IMG/VR virus record: IMGVR_UViG_3300010316_000010
Span: 1-56,027 of that record
DNA: 56,027 bases
From: a virus
Taxonomy: Duplodnaviria; Caudoviricetes
Direction: 5' to 3' (one strand)
Shown: positions 601 to 56,027 of the stretch, in pieces
Layout: each line of letters opens with the position of its first letter
How positions within the stretch are numbered: the stretch's first letter is position 1
Notes under the pieces: generated by a model
Databases searched by the model: none
What the model was told of the DNA's origin: nothing
The model's input: the letters and a program-made list of their open reading frames with translations, nothing else
Translations under genes and position numbers: made by a program

Positions 601-650
601 CGCACCCCCTCCCGGTTTATCGTGCGCACCCCATCCCGGTTTATCGTTCC
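601..650 (+). repeat. two tandem 24-bp direct repeats (third copy at 1147-1170)
   Basis: cgcacccc(c/a)tcccggtttatcgt at 601-623 and 625-647; 627-650 is identical to 1147-1170. Confidence 0.9.
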
Positions 651-1072
651 TCGCCCGTGGCCTTCTTCGCTCGGCTCGCGGCTTCCAGGAGTCCAAGAAG
701 ATTTCCCGCCAGGACCTTCTTCTGCTCCTCGTGCTCGAGGACGTCCGGCGAGTCCAGGATAGAGACCGCGGAGAGTTTCGGGCGAAGATAAGGAGCCGCG
801 TCGCTGTTGGCCTGTCTGCGGAGGGAGGGTTCGTTGCTGTAGTCCGAAGCCATGATCGCGAGCTCTACGACAGGATCGTACTCCTCGATCAGCGGCTGGA
901 TGCGGTCGAGTTCTCGCTCGTCGATCGGCAATCCGTGCTCCTCGAGATACCGCGCACGGATCTCGTCGCGTTTCAGCGAGGTGAAGTGGTGGACTGCGTC
1001 TTGGCTCGCGGCGCGAAGAGCAGTCTTCGAGCGAACACCATGTTGAGGTCTCATAGGGCTGTTCATTCGCAC
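641..1072 (-). CDS. terS: terminase small subunit (YuA-like)
   Basis: YDPVVELAIMA...RRQANSDAAPYLRPKL matches the A(A/P)Y.HPKL-type TerS motif; same strand as terL across the contig ends. Confidence 0.65.
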   Translation of the reverse strand: MRMNSPMRPQHGVRSKTALRAASQDAVHHFTSLKRDEIRARYLEEHGLPIDERELDRIQPLIEEYDPVVELAIMASDYSNEPSLRRQANSDAAPYLRPKLSAVSILDSPDVLEHEEQKKVLAGNLLGLLEAASRAKKATGEER

Positions 1073-11918: not shown

Positions 11919-12109
11919 ACGATTTCTTTCTCCACTGCGAGCCACTCTGGAATCCAGAGTGTGTAGATACCGTCGTGACCACTCTCCTCAAGCTGGCACT
12001 GGCTCTTCGGAACCCAGACAGCCTCTTCAGGTATGCTGTCTGTCACGAGCCACTCCGAACTTGTCTCGTGCAGAAGTTGCACACTGACGTCGATAACCTC
12101 ATCCATCAC
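11915..12109 (-). CDS. hypothetical protein
   Basis: VWVPKSQ...IPEWLAVEK small beta-protein motif; coupled to neighbours. Confidence 0.6.
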   Translation of the reverse strand: MMDEVIDVSVQLLHETSSEWLVTDSIPEEAVWVPKSQCQLEESGHDGIYTLWIPEWLAVEKEIV

Positions 12110-13065
12110 TCAGCTCCGATATACTGTAGAACAGCTTTGCGCCAGTCAGCAGCACGAATCAACTTCGCCCAGCGAGCAGCCTCGTCCCCCCGCTTCTGCC
12201 TGTGGTAGCGATGAGCTTCCCACATCGGCAGCGCGACTTCCAGGAAGAAGCTGTTGGAGTACGACGCACCCATCGGGTCTACGAAGAACTTGCTCAGGTC
12301 TAAGTCCCACGTCTGCCAGTTCTGCACGATCGGGTACGTGCCGGGATAGTCCTCCAAGTTGTCCGACTGGAACTTGGACTCCACAGCTTCGTAGAGGTGC
12401 CAGTTGTTGCTGATCTGGTAGTATCGGCCGACAGGTACGCCGATCCGCGCAGCCATGTACTCCTGTAGAAAGCTAAAGTGAACAGCATTCGCACCGTAGC
12501 AGCCCCAGACCACGTCGTTAGACCTGCACATCACAGTGATGTCGAGACGACCATCTACGATGCGGGGATAGAGCTGCGTGTTGCATGGAACATCTTTAGC
12601 GGGGGAGCCTGACTTCGTGTGCTTCGAGCTCTCGAGATCACAGGTTGCGTCCCACATCTGGATAACGACACGGCGATCTTTGTTGTCTCGGGCAAGGCGG
12701 GAACATACTTCTGCAATCTGGTCGTAACCGAAGTGGTTGCGCCACCGATAACCATACGCGCCGAACATCTTACCGTTTTCTTCTGCGTAGCGGCTAGAGA
12801 AATCACCCACGAACTGGTCGAGCCACTTAGCATCATCAGTACCGCGCATCATCCACAGGCACTCGAAGAAGTGGAAGAACGGGTTGGCTCGGCGAGCGGT
12901 GTTGAACAGCACCCGCTCCGTAGGTCGGTTGTATATCGTCGTGACTGGTGCGGTTGACACGATGACAGGTCCGTTGCGGCTGTCCTCCCGAACACCGTAG
13001 TCCTGCATCCTGTAGACTGCTTTCTCGTAGGCGTCGTTGACGTTGTTTGCATCAATCACTAGCAC
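12106..13065 (-). CDS. dUMP hydroxymethylase (thymidylate synthase family)
   Basis: SRNG, ANPFFHFFECLWM, catalytic PCN, RSNDVVWGCYGAN (Asn at the dUMP-specificity position), HLY; YuA/M6-like type. Confidence 0.85.
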   Translation of the reverse strand: MLVIDANNVNDAYEKAVYRMQDYGVREDSRNGPVIVSTAPVTTIYNRPTERVLFNTARRANPFFHFFECLWMMRGTDDAKWLDQFVGDFSSRYAEENGKMFGAYGYRWRNHFGYDQIAEVCSRLARDNKDRRVVIQMWDATCDLESSKHTKSGSPAKDVPCNTQLYPRIVDGRLDITVMCRSNDVVWGCYGANAVHFSFLQEYMAARIGVPVGRYYQISNNWHLYEAVESKFQSDNLEDYPGTYPIVQNWQTWDLDLSKFFVDPMGASYSNSFFLEVALPMWEAHRYHRQKRGDEAARWAKLIRAADWRKAVLQYIGAE

Positions 13066-13379
13066 AGTGTTCTTCTCCTGTTTTCTGACCCGTGCGGGTC
13101 GTTCTTCTTGGTTGAGTAGGCGTACATCAGCTCAGCTATCTTCTCTGCTTTCTTCATCACAGCCTCTATCTCCTGCAAGTCGATCCCGGTGCTTTCACGA
13201 AGATGGATCTTCTGTACAGCGATCAGGATAGCTGTGTTGTAGACACACAGATCATGCGTCTGGCTGACGCCGTTCAGCATGTCGATCGCCCACGTGCAGG
13301 CTGAGTAGACGCGTGTCTTCAGTTGTGGGACTTCACAGTCGCACAGCGGATGCACCGAGTTTGGTGAGTCATCAGCCAT
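13059..13379 (-). CDS. hypothetical protein within modification operon
   Basis: Overlaps both neighbours; GGAG RBS. Confidence 0.5.
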   Translation of the reverse strand: MADDSPNSVHPLCDCEVPQLKTRVYSACTWAIDMLNGVSQTHDLCVYNTAILIAVQKIHLRESTGIDLQEIEAVMKKAEKIAELMYAYSTKKNDPHGSENRRRTLC

Positions 13380-14190
13380 TCTCCAGAGCTTTCTTCCAGT
13401 AGACAGTCACCTCAGTGCGCTCGCCAGCCATGCGCCCCGTCTTGTTGACTTTGATGCGCGTATTGACGTAGGCGGGGTGAAGTGCTACCAGAGCTTCGGC
13501 CGTCACCTTGAGTTGGTCCTGATCGCGCACACCCTCGAGGCCTCCTGGACTGTCGGCTGAGCGTTGGTCCTGCGCCCAGTGGTAGGTGACGATATTCTTG
13601 TGCCCCATACGCAGAAGTTGGAGGGTCACGTCCAAGTCCTCCCGCCCCTCGACCTCGGTCCGATACCGCACAGCGCCCGACTTGAAGTGGTCGAGCCTGA
13701 ACCCGACGCAGCGGATGCAGCGCGTCGCCTCCGCTACAGCGTGAAGACCTTTCCTGTGGTTGTTACCGTCACGCGTACTGACGCCGACGTGGTGAGTTTC
13801 GTCGAGGGTCCTCCACATCCAGTCGAACATCGCGCGGTCGTCGTTCGGCAGGGAAGGTTTCAGACGGTAGTCCCAGCCGTTCTCGTCAGGTTGAAAACCA
13901 CCGCGCGAAGCAAACTTCAAGTCATCGTCGACCATGATGATTTTGTCGTAGCCCCTGCTCACGGCATTGTTCACAATCCACTGGCGCGTCGTGGCGATAC
14001 CGCTGACAGCGCCATCTGGAATGATCCACAGGTTGTCTCTGCTGCGACCGAGCTTCGTGATCAAGGCTTGGTAGAGCGGCGCTTCATCTTGCCGAACGAC
14101 CAGTGTCAGCGGTAGATCGCGCGGAAGATTGGTGAGTGAAGTCGCCTCACCGTTAGAGTGTCTGCGGTACGTCGGGACGACTATAAGCAT
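13372..14190 (-). CDS. GT-A fold DNA glycosyltransferase (TAGT/GREB1/JGT-like)
   Basis: IVVPTYRR, IATTRQWI, MVDDD (DxD), REDLDVTLQLLRMG, PGG motifs. Confidence 0.8.
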   Translation of the reverse strand: MLIVVPTYRRHSNGEATSLTNLPRDLPLTLVVRQDEAPLYQALITKLGRSRDNLWIIPDGAVSGIATTRQWIVNNAVSRGYDKIIMVDDDLKFASRGGFQPDENGWDYRLKPSLPNDDRAMFDWMWRTLDETHHVGVSTRDGNNHRKGLHAVAEATRCIRCVGFRLDHFKSGAVRYRTEVEGREDLDVTLQLLRMGHKNIVTYHWAQDQRSADSPGGLEGVRDQDQLKVTAEALVALHPAYVNTRIKVNKTGRMAGERTEVTVYWKKALENG

Positions 14191-15089
14191 TTCTTGATAC
14201 CCTCCTCAAGGTGTGTATAATTCGGAAGAACACCAATAATCTTGGTGAGCTTTTCCAGTTCGGGCTTGCGCCAGACGGGGTCATGCGGGCGAGCGGGGGT
14301 GTGTCTGATATCTACACCTCCTGCAAGTTTGGATACCAAGTTCGCCGCCTGACTGATTGTGACCTGTTCGTCGCAGCCGCAGTTTACCACTGTGAAACCC
14401 TCGGGCGCAAACTCGCGCAGCCGCCAGAAGATCTCAATCAGGTCGTCCACGTAGCAGAACGATCTGTTCTGAAGCCCGCTGCCGTGAACAGTCAGAGCCT
14501 CCCCCGCCTTCGCCTGCTTCACGAACGTGTTGATCACACGTCCGTCGTCCGGCATGTCGGGTCCGTAGGTGTTGAAGATGCGGAGCGCCACGACCCGCGC
14601 CTCCGGCTTGTCCTGCGCTATCTGCCACCCCAAGCCCTCGCTGAGGCGCTTGCACTCGTCGTAGACGCTGCGGACCGTGTCTGTGCGGACGCAGCCCGCG
14701 TTGCCCTCCTCCATCGGAGCGAGTGTCTTGCCGTAGGCCTCGCTGGATGTGGCGATGTAGAGTGTACCGTCCTCGTGCAGAAGATCTTTGAAGTACCTGA
14801 ACGGTGTGATGTTCGCCTGCAAGATGCGCTCCCAGTCGCGGAAGTCGTCGGGGCTGGCGGGGGAGGCAAAGCTCCAGATCTCGTCGTACTTGTTCATGAC
14901 CAGAAACTTGATCTTGCTCGCGTCGGACCCGAAGACGTCGACCCGCGGATCGTTCATGAACGGTTTCCTGGAACCTGTACTCATGTCGTCGACGATGTCG
15001 ATCTGTAGTTCAGGTCCACCCTCCGCCAAGTGGCGGCGAGCGATGGCTGAGCCCAAGAACCCAGCACCTCCGATAATCAGTACTCTCAC
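14181..15089 (-). CDS. NAD-dependent SDR, UDP-glucuronate decarboxylase (UDP-xylose synthase)-like
   Basis: GGAGFLG, ASPASP, TSSEAYG, RSVYDECKR, RIFNTYGP..DDGRV, RSFCYVDDL, DP..RKP; GTG start overlaps upstream TGA. Confidence 0.8.
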   Translation of the reverse strand: MRVLIIGGAGFLGSAIARRHLAEGGPELQIDIVDDMSTGSRKPFMNDPRVDVFGSDASKIKFLVMNKYDEIWSFASPASPDDFRDWERILQANITPFRYFKDLLHEDGTLYIATSSEAYGKTLAPMEEGNAGCVRTDTVRSVYDECKRLSEGLGWQIAQDKPEARVVALRIFNTYGPDMPDDGRVINTFVKQAKAGEALTVHGSGLQNRSFCYVDDLIEIFWRLREFAPEGFTVVNCGCDEQVTISQAANLVSKLAGGVDIRHTPARPHDPVWRKPELEKLTKIIGVLPNYTHLEEGIKKCL

Positions 15090-15511
15090 GTCGTTTCCTC
15101 TACAGTGGGCCAGAAGTATTCTAGCTTCGGTTCTTCGGTCCAGTCGAACTGACTGTACCACTCGGGGTCTTTGTGGAGCAGAGCGGCGCGGTGCGAAGAG
15201 TGCAGGCGCTCGTCGCCGAGCCACGGCGGCATCTCGATGTCCAAGAAGTACGGCTTGGAGTGATCAAGCATCAGTGGCATGTTGTTCTCGTAGCCGCGAC
15301 GAATCCACTCTTTGATGCAGCAGTCGGTGTACATCATCAGGGCTGTCACGTGCTGCGACCACATCTTCGTGCATGGGTGATTAGACCACCCTGAGCCTTC
15401 CTGAATAGCGGTCTGCATCTGTCTACCCTCCACGCGCTGTTTGCCGAGGCGGGCGCGGTCGAGAACCTGCGCTGACGCCACGAAGTTAGGATATGGTAAG
15501 AAACTCTGCAT
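15086..15511 (-). CDS. pyrimidine dimer DNA glycosylase / MSMEG_6728-like protein
   Basis: MQSFLPY...LDRARLGKQRVE...GWSNHP..KMW...EWIRRGY...HSSHRAALLHKDPEWY. Confidence 0.8.
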   Translation of the reverse strand: MQSFLPYPNFVASAQVLDRARLGKQRVEGRQMQTAIQEGSGWSNHPCTKMWSQHVTALMMYTDCCIKEWIRRGYENNMPLMLDHSKPYFLDIEMPPWLGDERLHSSHRAALLHKDPEWYSQFDWTEEPKLEYFWPTVEETT

Positions 15512-18318: not shown

Positions 18319-18614
18319 CAGAACACACCTCTCTCTAGTAGTTCGATGAACTTCTCCGGCGATCCGCGCTTGATCTTTCCGGTCTTCGCAGACTGCCACT
18401 TGTTCGCGCTCGGCCAGTACTGAGCGACGACCTTGTCGTTGCGAATACGCTTCACGGGCCAGTGAGCGGGAGTGGAGTTGACCAGATAGTATCCTCCCCG
18501 CTCCGCCGCGTATGCGAATTCGCCCCATCGATCCTCGGCTTTCTCCAGAGTCGCGCGACGTTTTTCTTTGATCTCGCGTTTCTGCTGCTGCCAGTACTCG
18601 ATCATCTCACCCAT
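18318..18614 (-). CDS. hypothetical protein
   Basis: Coupled to both neighbours; YWPSANKW motif. Confidence 0.6.
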   Translation of the reverse strand: MGEMIEYWQQQKREIKEKRRATLEKAEDRWGEFAYAAERGGYYLVNSTPAHWPVKRIRNDKVVAQYWPSANKWQSAKTGKIKRGSPEKFIELLERGVF

Positions 18615-19479
18615 GTCTGTAGATCCCCCGAGGTTTGCCTTGTCCAGTCTTCACGCGCAGATACTTGTCGACCTCGCAGAGTGTGTGCTCCACCTCGCGC
18701 ATCTCGAGGATGGGCCAGTCGATCGGCCAGTTGCGGGGGTCTCTGCTCGCAGCCATGATCGCCCGCATCTCGTCGATGAACAGGTGCTTCTTCTGTTTAC
18801 TCGTCAGGTTGCGACCGAAGATGCGGTTCAGGCCGCGCATGGCTCCAGGACCAGGATTCGCCCACGTGAGGATGTCTGGCGCATTGTAGAGCAAATCAGT
18901 CCAGCGCAGGTCGGTGACGAACTCGTAGCTGGTGAAGTCGGCGATGTGTGGGAACTTGGTGAACGCGGACCACGTAGCTTCTAGCGTTCCTGCCTGCTCG
19001 ATCGCGCGGAACACGTCGGCCCTGCCGTCCCAGACCCACTGGATCATCTGTAGAACACCAGTCAGCTTGTCCATGCCGTTCGGGCTGTTGATGATATAGG
19101 CTCCGGTGCAGTACGGCCCCCTCCCGCAGAAAGAAAGGATCGAAGGCTTCATGACGCCAGAGTCGCCCGTATGTAGGAACTCCTCGAAGGCTGTCCGGTT
19201 CCCGAAGCTGGTCTGGTTGAAGATAGCTTCACCAGTGATATTTCGGTTGAATAACCGGAAGACCACGGTCGCCATCAGGGTTGCGACGTTGTCGCCCTCG
19301 TAGCGATTACGTGCATTCGCAGCGAACCAGAGCGTGACGTTGTCCAGTTCGCGATAGACGTTCGTGAACCTGTAGCGGTGAAGAATGGGGTCGTCGGTCC
19401 ACGGGGAGGCACTCCCGGCTTTTCTCCGAAGATAGATCTCGTGGCGCTCGCGAGCGAAGGCGAAAAATTCGTCGTACAT
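18607..19479 (-). CDS. 5-hmdU DNA kinase-family protein (aGPT-Pplase1 / HMUDK helical domain)
   Basis: ERHEIYLRR..G...PWTDDPILHRYRFTNVYRELD, FRLFN, GPGAMRGL, EHTLCEVDKY. Confidence 0.85.
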   Translation of the reverse strand: MYDEFFAFARERHEIYLRRKAGSASPWTDDPILHRYRFTNVYRELDNVTLWFAANARNRYEGDNVATLMATVVFRLFNRNITGEAIFNQTSFGNRTAFEEFLHTGDSGVMKPSILSFCGRGPYCTGAYIINSPNGMDKLTGVLQMIQWVWDGRADVFRAIEQAGTLEATWSAFTKFPHIADFTSYEFVTDLRWTDLLYNAPDILTWANPGPGAMRGLNRIFGRNLTSKQKKHLFIDEMRAIMAASRDPRNWPIDWPILEMREVEHTLCEVDKYLRVKTGQGKPRGIYRHG

Positions 19480-19497
19480 GGTTATCTCCCATATGCT

Positions 19498-19535
19498 AAA
19501 GAAAAGCCCCCCACACCAGAAGGTGCGGAGGGCTT
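19498..19535 (-). terminator. intrinsic terminator
   Basis: aagccctccgcacc-ttct-ggtgtggggggctt followed by U-rich tail. Confidence 0.7.
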
Positions 19536-19596
19536 CAGCAACAAGAGTATGTGCCGAGGGTAGCGGCACATCCCCCTTGTAGCATGTGACCACAAA

Positions 19597-20280
19597 TCAG
19601 GCAACAGCCTTGACAGTGATGAAACCCTTCTTGAGGTCCCAGGAGATGTCGGTGGTCTTCACACCAGCGGTCAGCGCCTGCTCGATCGTCATGCCTTCTT
19701 TGTACATGTTGAAGCGATCTGCCGACGCGCTGCCGTCACGCTTCGGGTTGTTCGAGGCGCCGTACTTCTGGCCCTCTTTGTCGGCACCGAAGTGGATGGT
19801 CGACTTTGGGTTGTGAACGCTCAGCTTGCGCGGGGTCTTCTCAACAGGTGCCTTGCCGTCGGGCTTCGTCGTCGGGGTTGCAGTAGTCATTTGTCTGGAC
19901 TCCTCTATTGCCAGTTTGCGATCCAAGCGGATCAGGTTAACGACCTCGGTCGATTCTTTCGGTGTCTCGCGAGCCTTCTCACACATGACGGCCCACATCT
20001 GCTTGGAGAACCTCTGCATCGACGCTATCCGCATCTGATGTGTCATCCCAGCAGTTTCTTCCAAACTCCTCGCAGTCTCCTGCGCTAGATGGTCGGCCCC
20101 GAGCCTGCTCATCAGGCTTGGGATACGATTCAGTGGTATCTGTTCGGTGATTTTCTCGTGACCCACGATGAGTGGATCTCCGAGCTGGTAGACAGGATCA
20201 AGACCTGCCTCTCTGACATCTTTGAAGGCCCAGAGGTCCCCAAGTCCGTCACGCGTTATTGCGATGCACCCAATCATCAT
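19597..20280 (-). CDS. hypothetical protein with C-terminal NPKR...WD domain (paralog 2); internal in-frame start at 19890
   Basis: NNPKRDGSASADRFNMYKEGMTI...DISWDLKKGFITV; GAGGAG RBS before internal ATG. Confidence 0.7.
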   Translation of the reverse strand: MMIGCIAITRDGLGDLWAFKDVREAGLDPVYQLGDPLIVGHEKITEQIPLNRIPSLMSRLGADHLAQETARSLEETAGMTHQMRIASMQRFSKQMWAVMCEKARETPKESTEVVNLIRLDRKLAIEESRQMTTATPTTKPDGKAPVEKTPRKLSVHNPKSTIHFGADKEGQKYGASNNPKRDGSASADRFNMYKEGMTIEQALTAGVKTTDISWDLKKGFITVKAVA

Positions 20281-50199: not shown

Positions 50200-51892
50200 G
50201 AAGGTCTCCAATTCCGCCGATCGAGAGCGCGGGAAGTTCCCCGCTCTTAATCATGTCCCACGTGGTGTCGTCGTGTACCTTGAAGCCGACGATCCAGCCC
50301 TCTTTCTCGGACGACACACCCAGCATGGACGCGAGTTCTTTGGAGAGGGGAAGCGAGTGAACGACGTCACTGCGCTTTGTCCCGAAGTGCATCGTCTTGC
50401 CGACGCGTGTCGTGAGCATGAACTCTGTCGACGCCTTGGTCAGCTCGCTCATCGGGATGTGATCGCCGTGAAGATCGAAGACTGGCTCTCCGTTCACCGT
50501 AGCGACTGAGGCCCAGCCCCAGACGATACGCTGCTCATCGTCCATTTTGACGATCTGCACACCTGAGATATGATCAACATTCTTCTTCATGACAGTTGCC
50601 ATGATAGCTGATACCACGCGCTCAAGCAAGTCCCCATTTTCATCCTCGGAATCATTTTCCTCGTCTTCGTCCAACTCGAACGCCTCGAGATAGTCCTCGT
50701 GATCCTCTCCGGGCATGTAGACGGCCTGACCATCGACCTCGTAGACGTGAATCTCGCCACCGAGACCGAGTTCTGCACTGCGGGCGCGAGCTTCCTCCGG
50801 CATGGTGAAGCTGTCTTCCTTCACCATTCGCTTCTCCACCTTCGAGGCGACTCCACGCGCCCAGTCTACGCCCGTGGTTCCGCCCCAGAGAAGCCAAGCG
50901 ACGTGACCAGCATCCTTCCACGGTTCGTCCCTGTACTTCGGGTCGACCTCGGAGTTCTTGCGGTGACGGTTGAACTGCGCCATCCGCTTGACAGTGCTGA
51001 GGCTCAGCTTCTCCCCGCCTGCGAGCTGACTCGCCCGAGTCCAGCCGACGCGGGTGCCGCCCTTGACTTCGTCGCCGTACTTCTCGCGCCACGTGATAGC
51101 CTTCTTGGCGTTGTTTCGCGCAGAAGCGGGGGGAGTGTAGCCGTCAACTTTCTTCATCGGCTTCTTGCGACCAGTGGTGGGTACGTGGACATCGTCATTC
51201 GTCGGTGCGGTCTTCTCTACGACACCACTCTTCCAGTCAGGGTCAAGTGGCTGATAGACCATCGGCCCGAGCACGATGTCGCCCTCGAACGGGGGGATGG
51301 TCTGCTCGCCAGCCTGATACGAGAGCGTGATGTGAGGTTGATACGTGTCCCAGTCCCACGACGCACCCATCTCACGGTGCTCCAGATGCTCGCGCGAGAG
51401 GCGCTCGTTCTCGATCTTCAGTACGAGAGCTTCACCTTCTTTGCCGAGCCGCGCGATTGCCCTCGAGCCACCGCGGACCACAACCTTGTCCGCCCACACC
51501 CCAGCAAGACCACCGTAGGGTTCGGGGTAGTTGTCTGGAATAGACGCATACGCTCTGCGACTGTACACGACAGTCACGTGCATGTCCTCAGGGTCCAGAG
51601 TCGTCTCCAGACCGTTCGACTTGGCCCAGTCGACGATCTCCTCAGCGTTCAGGACAGGGCGATAGGCGTACATCGGCACTGCGCCTCGCGCTTTCTTGAT
51701 CCACTTGCCTTCGTCACTCTTCTTGTAGCCAGCGTCCTCGATCGCGGCCCAAGCTGACGCGAAACTGACAGATTCAGACTTACCCGCGTCTAACTGGCTA
51801 TTCACGACGCGCATGAACATAGAGCGTCCTGCATCGCTCGGTATCGCGTTCCTAACTGACTGCGGAAGCTCCGATATGTTCTCGTAAGGCAT
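50186..51892 (-). CDS. multidomain protein: ChaB + Acb1-like 2H phosphoesterase + helical domain + XkdF-like prohead protease
   Basis: MPY...LP.SVR...AWAAI (ChaB); MHVTVVYS and PHITLSY (two HxT motifs); QRIVWGWAS...DLHGD...MH...GWIVG...SIGG (XkdF). Confidence 0.8.
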   Translation of the reverse strand: MPYENISELPQSVRNAIPSDAGRSMFMRVVNSQLDAGKSESVSFASAWAAIEDAGYKKSDEGKWIKKARGAVPMYAYRPVLNAEEIVDWAKSNGLETTLDPEDMHVTVVYSRRAYASIPDNYPEPYGGLAGVWADKVVVRGGSRAIARLGKEGEALVLKIENERLSREHLEHREMGASWDWDTYQPHITLSYQAGEQTIPPFEGDIVLGPMVYQPLDPDWKSGVVEKTAPTNDDVHVPTTGRKKPMKKVDGYTPPASARNNAKKAITWREKYGDEVKGGTRVGWTRASQLAGGEKLSLSTVKRMAQFNRHRKNSEVDPKYRDEPWKDAGHVAWLLWGGTTGVDWARGVASKVEKRMVKEDSFTMPEEARARSAELGLGGEIHVYEVDGQAVYMPGEDHEDYLEAFELDEDEENDSEDENGDLLERVVSAIMATVMKKNVDHISGVQIVKMDDEQRIVWGWASVATVNGEPVFDLHGDHIPMSELTKASTEFMLTTRVGKTMHFGTKRSDVVHSLPLSKELASMLGVSSEKEGWIVGFKVHDDTTWDMIKSGELPALSIGGIGDLHAAE

Positions 51893-51896
51893 CTTT

Positions 51897-52661
51897 TTAT
51901 CCTCTTATTGGTTCTATCCAGCCGAATAGTCCGGCTGTGACGTCCGCAGCCTTGTTACTCGTCGCAGTCAGACCGATCCACTCCCCCGACGGAACTGCGA
52001 GGGGATGCGGTAGACCGAGCGTCACGCTGGTGTCCTGGACTCCGACGGCTGCGAGCGGGTACAGAATCCCCTCGTCGGCGTAGCTGTCGAGCAGGACTCG
52101 GGTAGTCTGAATCTTGATCACCACCCGCGCGGCCGACGTACCACTCACCGCCCCGGCGTAGAGTGAGTGGACGACGAATATCTTCCCAGCAGGAACACGA
52201 AAGAAACTCGTGTCGAGCTGCACTGATCCCACTCCGATCTTGCCGTACGTCACCCCGCCGGACGTCATCGTCACGTCACCCGCTGGCGGACCACCCCGAT
52301 GATACGCGGAGAGCACTGCTCTCACGTCCGCCGCCTGTGTGAGGACCGGAGTCAGGCCGGTGAGTGTAATCACCTCCGTCTGCTCGTTCAGGTCGCCGTC
52401 GAGGTAGTGTAGAACGATCTGTCCGGTGTCGGCCGCGCTGGTGCTGACTACTGAGAGCTGAACTCTGTTCGGAACGACGAAGGTGCTGCCCATCGTCGTC
52501 TCCCAGACGGGCTGCTCGTTCATCGGTCCGCTGGAGACGTACTCACCGAACGTGCTGATCGGGCGAGACTCTGCGACATCACCCCTCGCGACGTCCAGTC
52601 CGTACTGGCTCCGCCAGATGCGCTCGGGCCAAGGCGTCTTAGACGACGTCATCGTCATCAC
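51897..52661 (-). CDS. hypothetical virion-associated beta protein
   Basis: LDVARG, VSTSAADT, LTGLTPV motifs; position in head module. Confidence 0.6.
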   Translation of the reverse strand: MMTMTSSKTPWPERIWRSQYGLDVARGDVAESRPISTFGEYVSSGPMNEQPVWETTMGSTFVVPNRVQLSVVSTSAADTGQIVLHYLDGDLNEQTEVITLTGLTPVLTQAADVRAVLSAYHRGGPPAGDVTMTSGGVTYGKIGVGSVQLDTSFFRVPAGKIFVVHSLYAGAVSGTSAARVVIKIQTTRVLLDSYADEGILYPLAAVGVQDTSVTLGLPHPLAVPSGEWIGLTATSNKAADVTAGLFGWIEPIRG

Positions 52662-53936: not shown

Positions 53937-55280
53937 TTATATCCTCGCGAATTCATTGTTCTGTTTACCCTCGCGCAGAGCGAGGTTCGTCTCTTTGCGC
54001 TTGCGCTTGCCCATCAGGTCTGTGATCGCCCAGACCAGAGCGTCGACGCGGTCGGGCGAGCCGTCGCCCACGTATCCGTCGTTCGTCATGAGCATCATCT
54101 GCTGCTCGAGCTTCTCCAAGCCCTTCACGTGCTTCACGCGCCCCTGCTCGTACAGAGCGGCGACTGGCTCAGCCCGAACGACCTTGCCCCTGCTCGCCCT
54201 GACTGACTTGTACGACACCTCGGGATCGACCGTGCGGATGACTGACTCAACCATCGCACCACCGAAGTTCACCTCGGCAACCATACGATCTGCCTCGAAG
54301 TCTTCGTAGGCGTTCACAGCAGCGCGGCCCCACGCGGACGGCCCGCCCTTGACGGTCCTGTCGGCGAGAACATAGTACTCGTCGGCGTCGTCGCCGCAGT
54401 CGATCACGCCGACTACGACGATACCGATCTCGTCCGCAGACTCCTCACCCCCGCCAGCGCCCGACGGGTCCACCGCCACGACGATGCGCGAGAGGTTCTC
54501 CGGCACCTGATCCACGTGGATCAGCATCTCGTCCGCCCAGATAGCGCCAGTCACCTCATCCAACAGTTCAGCCAGCAGCTCCTGCCGCCCGAGACGGGTT
54601 CCCTCATACTTCTCCTTGAACTTGCGGAGCACCGAGGCTGGCAGGTGAGCAGAGTTATCATATGTCGTAGCCCGACTGACGACTGTACTCGGGTCAGCCA
54701 AGATCGTGCGGATCAGGGGGGTCGTGCGGGGGGTAGTCGTCACCACGATTGTCGGTAACTCACCTAATCGCAGACCGAACAGGAGGTTGTCCCAGAGGTC
54801 AGGTCCGGCCTTGCCCCACGCACCGAGCTCGTCGCACCAAGCGCGGTGATGCTGCGGGCCGCGAAGGCGCTCGGCCTCCTCCGCGGAGTAGCCGAAGTAG
54901 AGCGACTCTCCGCCGTCGACGGTGCTAGTCTTCAGTTCGAGGCTCGTTCTGTTGTAGTTCACGACGAGTTCTTTCGGTATGCGAGCCAGGAGCCCAGACT
55001 CACCCTCGAAGCACGTCTTGCGAACGTCGTTGTTCGTCGGACCCACGACCGCGATTCGCTGCGGTTGTATGAAGCTCGGCCACCAGACGTCCTCGGCCCC
55101 TGCTCGGGTCTTACCTGATCCGCGGCCTCCCATCAGCATCCAGACGAAGTAGTCCTCAGGCGGGAGTTGGTCCGGGCGGGCAGTCTGCAACCACTCCAGA
55201 CGACGGTTCATGCCGATGAGTTGCTCCCCCGAGAGCAGGGCGAGTTCTGAGTGGATCTGGGCTCGGGTGCGGTCGTCCAT
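53937..55280 (-). CDS. terL: terminase large subunit
   Basis: GGRGSGKT Walker A, LRGPQ..AWCDE, TTTP, VAVDPS, SPDRVDALVWA. Confidence 0.95.
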   Translation of the reverse strand: MDDRTRAQIHSELALLSGEQLIGMNRRLEWLQTARPDQLPPEDYFVWMLMGGRGSGKTRAGAEDVWWPSFIQPQRIAVVGPTNNDVRKTCFEGESGLLARIPKELVVNYNRTSLELKTSTVDGGESLYFGYSAEEAERLRGPQHHRAWCDELGAWGKAGPDLWDNLLFGLRLGELPTIVVTTTPRTTPLIRTILADPSTVVSRATTYDNSAHLPASVLRKFKEKYEGTRLGRQELLAELLDEVTGAIWADEMLIHVDQVPENLSRIVVAVDPSGAGGGEESADEIGIVVVGVIDCGDDADEYYVLADRTVKGGPSAWGRAAVNAYEDFEADRMVAEVNFGGAMVESVIRTVDPEVSYKSVRASRGKVVRAEPVAALYEQGRVKHVKGLEKLEQQMMLMTNDGYVGDGSPDRVDALVWAITDLMGKRKRKETNLALREGKQNNEFARI

Positions 55281-55488
55281 GAAGTTGGGTCTCTGTTCTG
55301 GGCGAAAAAATTTTGGTTCGGGGTCCTCGGCACAGCGTAGCACACTCGAGGAGGCGCAGACAAGTGCGAAGAGTGGATTCTAATTTTGGTGATAGAGTTT
55401 GTGGGGTGGAGCGCGGCCCGTTTGGGCAAGCCCGTCCGGGCTTTTTGTAATTTGTTGTGGGCGGGGGTACCCCCACCCACCGTTTGCG

Positions 55489-55812
55489 TTAGCCTAGTAC
55501 AATGTGGGCGCGCTTTACATCCCAACGTATATCCTCTCTGGTTGCACCTGCTTGTACAGCTTGCGCAACTGTTTGGCCAACCTTGTACGCGGCAAACCGG
55601 GCATGGGCGGCGGTACCGGGGCGCTTGGGGTTGGCAACAACCGCCACAATAGTGGCAGCGTTGTTGGCAGGTGTATTGCCTTTAGTGGCTTGTACGGTTG
55701 CGCCAATGGTTGCTTGCGGGTTGGTGGCGGGCGCGGCGGGCGCGGCGGGCGCGGGCGCGGCGGGCGCGGTTGCTTTGGTTGCGGTTGCTTTGGTTGCGGT
55801 TGCGTTAGCCAT
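55489..55812 (-). CDS. Ala/Thr-rich protein with NPKR...WD domain (paralog 3), encoded in TC/GA-depleted DNA
   Basis: ANPKRPGTAAHARFAAYKVGQTV...EDIRWDVKRAHI; ATG 55812 after AAAGG. Confidence 0.75.
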   Translation of the reverse strand: MANATATKATATKATAPAAPAPAAPAAPATNPQATIGATVQATKGNTPANNAATIVAVVANPKRPGTAAHARFAAYKVGQTVAQAVQAGATREDIRWDVKRAHIVLG

Positions 55813-55890
55813 TGTATTAGTGCCTTTGTATAAATGGCCAGCCATTATGGCGGGCCTATGGCAAGCCGCAAAAGCGCGGCTTGTACAACC

Positions 55891-55920
55891 CGTATAACGG
55901 CCCGCCTTGTATAGTGCAAG
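55891..55920 (-). promoter_or_regulatory. promoter with CTTG-N7-CAAG palindrome
   Basis: TTGCAC-N17-TATACG; cttg-tatagtg-caag at 55906-55920. Confidence 0.55.
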
Positions 55921-55940
55921 CCCTAAAATAAACTAATTAG

Positions 55941-56027
55941 CAGGGCAGGGCCACAGCTGCACCACAGGGCAGGGCAGGGCCACAGCTGCACCACAGGGCA
56001 GGGCAGGGCCACAGCTGCACCACAGGG
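55941..56027 (+). repeat. three exact tandem copies of a 29-bp unit, running to the contig end
   Basis: cagggcagggccacagctgcaccacaggg x3. Confidence 0.95.

Follow-up and report, generated by a model that had tools for sequence, protein, structure and literature searches.

The closest described systems are the phages M6, ViI, phiW-14, PaMx11 and SH-Ab 15599, which hypermodify thymidine by way of 5-hydroxymethyl-deoxyuridine (5hmdU). The restriction sites found to be resistant in M6, ViI and phiW-14 share TG or TC (PMC6449724), kinase-treated SP8 DNA is resistant only at TG/TC sites (PMC7653180), and dapT occurs predominantly at TG (PMC13458397). Here we analyse a freshwater phage represented by the IMG/VR record IMGVR_UViG_3300010316_000010, a linear sequence of 56,027 bp that is approximately 90% complete and that, taken as a whole, is referred to below as the window. 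At its end, immediately upstream of the large terminase gene terL, lies a zone of 592 bp almost devoid of TC and GA, i.e. of TC on either strand, and on the sequence evidence presented below purifying selection keeps this zone free of TC on both strands. Like the hypermodification phages, the window clusters a thymidylate-synthase-like gene, a PF18723 gene and an HD hydrolase, in a gene order that matches that of PhiJL001 and resembles those of M6 and PaMx11. It differs from them in that no P-loop kinase and no recognised aGPT-Pplase2 were found, a TAGT-like glycosyltransferase and a sugar epimerase being present instead; in a sequence proxy that points to TC only and not to TG, whereas the published contexts are TG or TC; and in the target-free island itself, which was not found in M6, PaMx11 or PhiJL001.

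Other systems offer partial parallels. The first-step-transfer DNA of phage T5 and the leading DNA of T7 lack host enzyme sites of at least 6 bp, likewise a local absence of short targets in a segment with promoter-driven small genes; here, however, a whole dinucleotide that is tolerated elsewhere is missing over 0.6-0.8 kb, and its reader is likely an enzyme of the phage's own. CpG islands and the protected GATC sites of pap and agn43 in E. coli act as epigenetic switches, in which an unmodified segment keeps a promoter or gene in another expression state, but these elements retain the motif and escape modification via protein binding or chromatin, whereas the zone has deleted the motif, synonymous recoding included. 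TF1 of phage SPO1 is a small phage DNA-binding protein that prefers hydroxymethyluracil (hmU) DNA. The zone likewise encodes a small basic protein, for which, as for TF1, a role as a transcription modulator can be proposed, in a phage with probable 5hmU-type DNA; TF1 belongs to the HU family, whereas the zone protein is winged-helix-like and has no sequence relative in PDB.

Counted as dinucleotides, TC and GA together occupy 8924 positions of the window (0.159 per position), and both are over-represented throughout (odds 1.27 for TC and 1.32 for GA), in keeping with a preliminary description, drawn up from the letters alone, of a TC/GA-rich genome. Against this background the depleted zone (55436..56027) runs off the contig end with only four TC sites, at 55520, 55532, 55535 and 55537. 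The longest uninterrupted TC/GA-free run of the window, 490 bp at 55538..56027, extends to the last nucleotide, the second longest (84 bp, 55436-55519) adjoins it, and the third longest measures 44 bp; both the absence of sites up to the contig end and the positions of the four exceptions had been described correctly. Composition alone does not produce such runs: in 200 genomes simulated by a first-order Markov model the longest free run averaged 45.4 bp and never exceeded 69 bp. For a 490-bp run at any place in the window the probability is roughly 4e-34; when the base composition of the zone itself is used, it becomes 4e-27. Unique non-coding DNA is equally free of TC and GA, including the 127 bp of the promoter and 5' untranslated region (5'UTR; P 2.5e-10) and the 53 bp of the 3' flank (P 1e-4). 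The other dinucleotide classes show no comparable run, the runner-up being TA with 280 bp at a rate of 0.03, and, as noted earlier, the zone is not depleted in TG (50 sites) or TT (48 sites). Contigs assembled from four sequencing runs of four samples (Logan) reach up to the repeats at the end of the window, with no letter difference listed in the zone and three in terL. With no difference listed across the four samples, the zone is not a chimera of one of them, a concern raised in advance, and an assembly artefact is thereby rejected.

The survey of related loci covered 45 terL-related loci from IMG/VR and 74 from metagenomes, some contigs being in both collections, and all 121 loci were scanned for runs lacking each of the ten dinucleotide classes. 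Three phages, L003, L087 and L051, combine a terL that is at least 66% identical (in the best segment) with at least 600 bp of upstream DNA. In L003, two runs without TC or GA (506 and 252 bp) lie upstream of terL, interrupted only by the two Asp codons of the DIxWD motif that it shares with the window, and they stop 90 bp short of terL; L087, which begins right after a repeat array, is free at 1-363 and then again up to about 625. In L051, which is identical to L021 and L073 in their overlaps, the orthologous gene in the same place has 36 TC/GA sites vs 43.5 expected, with 9 sites in the promoter and 5'UTR. The promoter and 5'UTR are TC/GA-free in the three zone phages, over 127 (window), 130 and 120 bp, and the Shine-Dalgarno sequence is AAAGG or AAGGG in these phages and GGAG in L051. 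Amino acid identity of terL to that of L003 is 87% for L051 and 70% for the window. The more distant loci scanned contain nothing comparable to the zone, and the contigs L004, L050 and L052 give no information, as they begin only 68-83 bp before terL. (The first 100 bp or so of L052 are AT-rich, unlike the otherwise 99% identical L004 and L050, and it may be chimeric at this end.) No close DNA or protein relative of the zone was found among 50,697 deposited phage records, and scans of IMG/VR for further loci with the zone gene returned only L003 with an L087-type alignment and none with the window protein. Long runs free of other dinucleotides were also noticed: TA is missing over 1350 bp in PhiJL001 (51293-52642 of the joined L144 and L145; TA rate 0.013), CG over 241 bp in L041 (3202-3442) and GC over 224 bp in L068 (716-939).

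Codon resampling, in which the same proteins were redrawn synonymously 5000 times from each phage's own codon usage, gave on average 25.2, 37.9 and 35.2 TC/GA sites in the zone genes of the window, L003 and L087, respectively, with minima of 11, 25 and 21, vs observed counts of 4, 2 and 2. Together with the Markov control, this leads us to reject chance and composition as the cause. The L003 and L087 copies of the gene have diverged to a synonymous divergence (dS) of 1.51 and 74% amino acid identity, compared with a dS of 0.36 in terL, while the spacer and the start of terL are approximately 100% identical between these two phages; despite the divergence both copies of the zone stay free of TC and GA. 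With a zone gene (L003:4171-4644 vs L087:121-566) whose synonymous divergence is about four times that of terL, the zone seems to be an exchanged or separately evolving module. The TC/GA sites of L051 are replaced in its relatives by many different dinucleotides, TC>TT or GA>AA, as expected from a cytosine deaminase specific for TC, accounting for only 11 of 35 sites in L087 and 5 of 36 in L003. This diverse spectrum is not that of a mutational footprint, and on the same counts the footprint of a TC-specific deaminase was rejected. Proteins of this family, that of L051 included, have much Ala and few acidic residues and are hence easily recoded. The four surviving sites of the window (55520..55538, minus strand) fall into the AGA-GAG-GAT and later GAT codons of the peptide REDIRWD, as had been recognised; three are forced by Glu or Asp and the one in AGA is avoidable. 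They encode conserved residues, the last Asp being invariant and the first present in at least 90% of the sequences of a 76-row alignment.

Analysis of the features along the zone reveals that it coincides with a transcription unit on the minus strand. At the contig end a perfect 29-bp tandem repeat is present in 3.0 copies (55940..56027) and is truncated by the end itself. In the four runs the contig of the collapsed repeat has 5.8-8 times the depth of its flank (taken from contigs, not raw reads, with one depth figure per contig, which is flat by construction), implying that about 6-8 copies are present. The repeats are followed by an A/T-rich stretch and by a sigma-70-like promoter, TTGCAC-N17-TATACG (55891..55919, minus strand; -35 at 55919-55914 and -10 at 55896-55891), whose TTGCA and TAT are invariant alignment columns in all four phages; an automatic promoter scan did not call it. 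After a leader of about 70 nt, in which AAAGG stands where a Shine-Dalgarno sequence with GA would be expected, comes the zone gene (55489..55812, minus strand), encoding 107 amino acids plus a stop codon, with its start at 55812 set by homology with L003, L087 and the protein P0008. A GC-rich, terminator-like palindrome or hairpin (55457..55480, minus strand) lies 9 bp past the stop codon, and a second terminator-like hairpin, with its T-run on the plus strand, occupies 55420..55443; the zone ends within it, at 55436. The ribosome-binding site, the promoter and the repeats all obey the TC/GA rule, just as described beforehand. With repeats and promoter at one border and a hairpin at the other, the zone thus corresponds to one promoter-to-terminator unit. 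A search of Rfam with 55200-56027 gave no match at E <= 1, i.e. no structured RNA was found. Immediately downstream follows terL (53937..55343, minus strand), the first gene of the structural operon.

The other side of the zone is less well defined. The 143-amino-acid open reading frame (ORF) at 641..1072 (minus strand) is 50% identical to an ORF of L003 (738..1169), which places the start of the window upstream of the zone in circular order. The preliminary description had placed the zone between terS and terL; it does adjoin terL, but the assignment of the ORF at 641..1072 as terS depends on a weak, non-significant match (E 0.056). No contig continuing beyond the start of the window was matched in IMG/VR. 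The upstream repeat units differ among the phages, being the 29-mer in the window, CCACCG in L003 and CGCAGGGC in L051, and these tandem arrays explain the contig breaks at the zone. All three arrays (window 55940-56027, L051:1-123 and L003:3958-4040) are rich in G-runs on one strand, that of L051 fits the G-quadruplex pattern, and GCAGGGC recurs in the arrays of the window and L051 and in the terminator hairpin of L087.

A cluster of thymidine-modification type is encoded on the minus strand of the window. Its genes specify a thymidylate-synthase-like protein, a candidate dUMP hydroxymethylase (12106..13065; PF00303, 4.4e-21), which scores under the NCBIfam cut-offs for thymidylate synthase; the TAGT-like glycosyltransferase (13372..14190); an NAD-dependent sugar epimerase/dehydratase (14181..15224); a dCTP-deaminase/dUTPase-like protein; an HD 5'-deoxynucleotidase; and a protein with the PF18723 domain (HMUDK_hel, the helical domain of 5-hmdU DNA kinase; 18607..19593, 3.7e-48). 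The last is a homologue of M6 gp55 and PaMx11 gp50, and tblastn matches it to M6 ORF055 and PaMx11 gp50. We also found a MSMEG_6728-family protein (NCBIfam, 1.3e-39) at 15086-15511 within the cluster, on the same strand. 5-hmdU kinase activity is proven for the P-loop proteins M6 gp54 and PaMx11 gp49, the neighbours of gp55 and gp50. The cluster reported earlier is therefore present as a set of genes, although its PF18723 protein is of the helical-domain, gp55 type and is not the kinase. The modified base may possibly be a glycosylated 5hmU. An overlap of 5320 bp at 99.98% identity shows that L003 and the 48.8-kb record G001 represent the same phage, and since G001 has a PF18723 gene 69% identical to that of the window, the cluster and the zone co-occur in two phages. 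No terL was found in the PF18723 phage records G001-G005, of which G001 and G002 end before terL.

An indication of the modified context comes from the observed-to-expected ratio (O/E) of 6-bp palindromes, for which the 16 words containing TC/GA were set against the rest. As a class such palindromes are strongly avoided in these genomes, but the words with TC/GA are spared. The TC/GA palindromes have O/E values of 0.83, 0.74 and 0.89 in the window, G001 and G002, respectively, vs 0.50, 0.49 and 0.37 for those without TC/GA, and among 20000 random 16-word sets 0, 135 and 0 match the contrast. It survives the removal of words with CC/GG, and words with TG/CA are not spared. The 11.6-kb contig of L051 has the same signature (0.94 vs 0.35). 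In M6 the TG/CA words are the spared ones (O/E 0.79 vs 0.36) and the TC/GA words are not (0.23 vs 0.56), while in PaMx11 both TC/GA and TG/CA palindromes are spared. The spared class thus differs by phage and may be a sequence-only proxy for modification context. For the clade of the window, these data support, rather than demonstrate, TC as the protected context. The proposal that TC is the target of modification accordingly gains from the palindromes and from the published TG/TC contexts, but the proxy is indirect and the constraint is absent from L051.

The zone protein, as previously described, has no Ser and only three acidic residues (Asp plus Glu) among its 107 amino acids, with 11 Lys plus Arg. 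It consists of a basic N-terminal tail rich in Ala, Thr and Pro and a C-terminal winged-helix-like domain of about 55 residues. The tail is encoded by internal 15-bp tandem repeats (55726-55803) and is variable among strains (cf. P0008); the Logan contigs of two runs break within these repeats (at 55732 and 55774). The domain matches 4303 cluster representatives at E <= 0.001 and is usually found C-terminally in viral proteins of 160-200 amino acids. A model from the 76-row alignment has a predicted local distance difference test score (pLDDT) of 95.9 and the topology b-a-a-a-b, an earlier one from 12 rows (pLDDT 59) being too poor to use. Structural comparison with VIA-align gave Z-scores of 5.0-5.6 to GATOR1, FAM91A1, SEA-complex entries and Rv2067c, and of approximately 3 to Fur, the MCM C-terminus, ScpB and ZBP1, all below the trust level of 8 for this tool, and the model thus weakly resembles domains of winged-helix type. 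Foldseek found nothing in PDB at E <= 0.001, a sequence search of PDB with the domain profile returned only chance-level rows, ESM Atlas contained only unnamed viral clusters for the domain, and NCBIfam had nothing for the zone protein, the PF18723 protein or the paralogue discussed below. In six of ten long hits (P0006, P0009, P0012, P0049, P0051 and P0062) the domain forms two or three stretches of a protein of 551-1025 amino acids that ends in an ADP-ribosyltransferase exoenzyme domain. P0013, a Lys/Glu-rich, eukaryote-like protein with a PHD-finger, contains it twice; the domain belongs to no Pfam or PHROG family.

A paralogue of normal composition with the same domain (227 amino acids; 19597..20280, minus strand) is encoded directly upstream of the PF18723 gene. 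This arrangement, a winged-helix-like gene directly followed by a PF18723 gene, is found in the window, G001, G002, G003 and PhiJL001, in the last of which gp18 precedes gp19, a PF18723 match at 1.5e-45; L144:11716-13021 and L124:9157-10864 are among the positions of the gene pair. In M6 and PaMx11 the same slot is held by the P-loop kinase. The N-terminal parts differ among the zone protein and the paralogues, which makes the shared domain the conserved link; for the N-terminal part of the paralogue ESM Atlas offered no usable match. A prediction of the complex between the PF18723 protein and the zone domain scored 0.01, which is evidence neither way. Additional clues come from a 15-bp palindrome, (G/A)CTGCACAGTGCAGC, which occurs twice each in L003 (4101-4115 and 4764-4778) and L087 (52-66 and 685-699), as an exact copy directly following the -10 of the zone promoter and as a copy with a single mismatch that precedes the -35 of the terL promoter by about 17 bp. 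It has no match with up to two mismatches in the 48.8-kb G001, and no equivalent was found in the window. Its presence at both promoters suggests a shared operator, through which one regulator, possibly the zone protein itself, would control the zone gene as well as the late operon in L003 and L087. Regulation through DNA binding is the probable role of the zone protein, and the neighbouring late operon, that of terL, is a possible target.

To account for these observations, we propose that the zone is a modification-proof transcription unit, which escapes the phage's own TC-directed hypermodification of thymidine, a reading to which we give about an even chance; the regulatory role of the zone protein we hold with less confidence than that. 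T followed by C would be the context in which 5-hydroxymethyl-dU is hypermodified after replication. Lacking such targets, the zone would stay plain 5hmU whatever the modification of the rest of the genome, and host RNA polymerase and DNA-binding proteins could still read its promoter, operator sites and gene body. The unit could then be fully transcribed from the modified genome as it enters the cell and again in the late phase; elsewhere hypermodification would lower transcription. In the study by Vanikova et al. (PMC6457204), E. coli RNA polymerase transcribed a 5hmU template at 350% of natural DNA; once the template had been phosphorylated by 5-hmdU DNA kinase (5-HMUDK), transcription fell to 37% of natural DNA, about 10% of that on 5hmU. 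The paper also states that bulkier groups in the major groove inhibit transcription. That exactly one transcription unit is covered and both strands are purged fits insulation better than a cause acting at the level of RNA or a short binding site.

Several observations weigh against this proposal. Judged by terL, L051 is a closer relative of L003 than the window, and it keeps both gene and repeats but shows no avoidance. Given that it has the same palindrome signature, the constraint is not universal, and this lineage may carry the same modification without avoidance; the idea that L051 lacks the modification is opposed by that signature (0.94 vs 0.35, on a contig without the replication module). 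In other phages with PF18723 genes, namely G001-G005, PhiJL001, PaMx11 and M6, no free zone of any of the ten dinucleotide classes was found; of these, G001, G002, G003 and G005 are incomplete records and G004, PhiJL001, PaMx11 and M6 are complete ones. G001 also lacks the genome-wide enrichment in TC and GA (odds 1.09 and 1.01), and the sparing of palindromes, being an indirect proxy, may have other causes. A Walker-A search of the stop-to-stop ORFs of at least 80 amino acids in the window did not find a P-loop 5-hmdU DNA kinase in the cluster, such motifs being present only in terL, a UvrD-type helicase, a primase ORF and two stop-to-stop frames without assignment, and M6 gp55, to which the PF18723 protein is homologous, is dispensable for the reconstituted reaction. 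Finally, glucosylated T4 DNA is transcribed by the host polymerase, hence bulky groups need not block elongation.

Among the alternatives, the one that survives best is that the zone is a pac or other nucleoprotein site, at which the small terminase or the zone protein nucleates on the repeats and needs several hundred bp of unmodified DNA beside terL, the gene having adapted to this need. The position directly upstream of terL is the usual one for pac/cos and for terS, the window, L003 and L051 all have tandem repeats beside the unit, the fold of the zone protein is of DNA-binding type and its gene occupies the usual position of terS, and no convincing terS is found elsewhere. Nevertheless we regard this explanation as unlikely. 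Known pac sites span from tens to approximately 300 bp, which the 0.6-0.8 kb of the zone exceed, and the borders of the zone correspond to a promoter and a terminator, not to those of a binding array. Between the three phages the repeats are wholly different in unit, L051 keeps repeats and gene without avoidance, and the breaks of contigs at the zone, explained by tandem repeats, do not mark physical ends. No protein of the window or of L003, the zone protein included, has a terS match in Pfam or PHROG, and only the position of the zone gene upstream of terL fits that role.

Less probable still is that the zone evades a host factor acting on TC/GA, such as restriction enzymes with sites of the GATC, TCGA or GANTC type, TNTC-directed ADP-ribosylation or a TC deaminase, and encodes a counter-defence gene that enters the cell first. 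The unit is self-contained, has its own promoter and may lie near a genome end, and the site-free leading regions of T5 and T7 are precedents. However, TC/GA palindromes are the least avoided class genome-wide, which argues that such sites are not under attack and makes this explanation, put forward in the preliminary description as an alternative, improbable. The zone contains three of the ten CAGCTG sites of the window, a word that is avoided elsewhere at an O/E of 0.37, and one protected gene cannot save a genome that is cut elsewhere. Moreover, the protein is basic, winged-helix-like and has a paralogue in the modification cluster, unlike DNA-mimic anti-restriction proteins.

A replication origin of the iteron type, or a partition site, could come with a small protein that binds it and would have to stay unmodified for initiator binding or strand opening, but we consider it very improbable that the zone is either. 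Its layout, with approximately 6-8 direct 29-bp repeats followed by the A/T-rich stretch and a small gene of DNA-binding type, would suit such a site, but neither the sequence nor the length of the repeats is conserved among relatives, no partner ATPase, initiator or partition family turned up in the protein scans of the window, the cumulative GC skew of the window has no turning point and hence no origin signal, and the coding part of an origin need not be target-free. The idea that the zone has no function and merely reflects Ala/Thr/Pro-rich coding with GC-rich repeats, hypermutation or misassembly can draw on the composition of the protein family, even in L051, and on the fact that short GC-rich repeats are naturally TC/GA-free, yet it deserves almost no credence, as codon resampling never neared the observed counts, non-coding parts are also free, the replacements are diverse, the letters agree in four samples and the zone is present in three diverged phages.

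We therefore return to the modification-proof transcription unit, which can be extended in two tentative ways. The modification could act as a genome-wide dimmer of transcription, with one target-free regulator gene permanently on, an extension that we regard as doubtful. The regulator, in turn, would be a winged-helix paralogue of the protein that partners the PF18723 enzyme and may switch on the packaging and structural operon, which is likewise conceivable but speculative.

A target-free island of this kind was not found described in the full-text literature searched. If our proposal holds, the zone would be the first case found of a virus that has recoded a transcription unit in its entirety to evade the DNA hypermodification that it itself performs, and hypermodified bases would carry a regulatory cost or role beyond protection from restriction. 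Target-free islands together with the sparing of palindromes would then predict the modification context of uncultured phages from sequence. The winged-helix-like domain, with its 4303 cluster representatives, some members encoded beside PF18723 genes and others fused to ADP-ribosyltransferase domains, would be a player in DNA-modification systems, and a hard-wired modification-free island would represent an epigenetic-style viral programme that can be read from the sequence.

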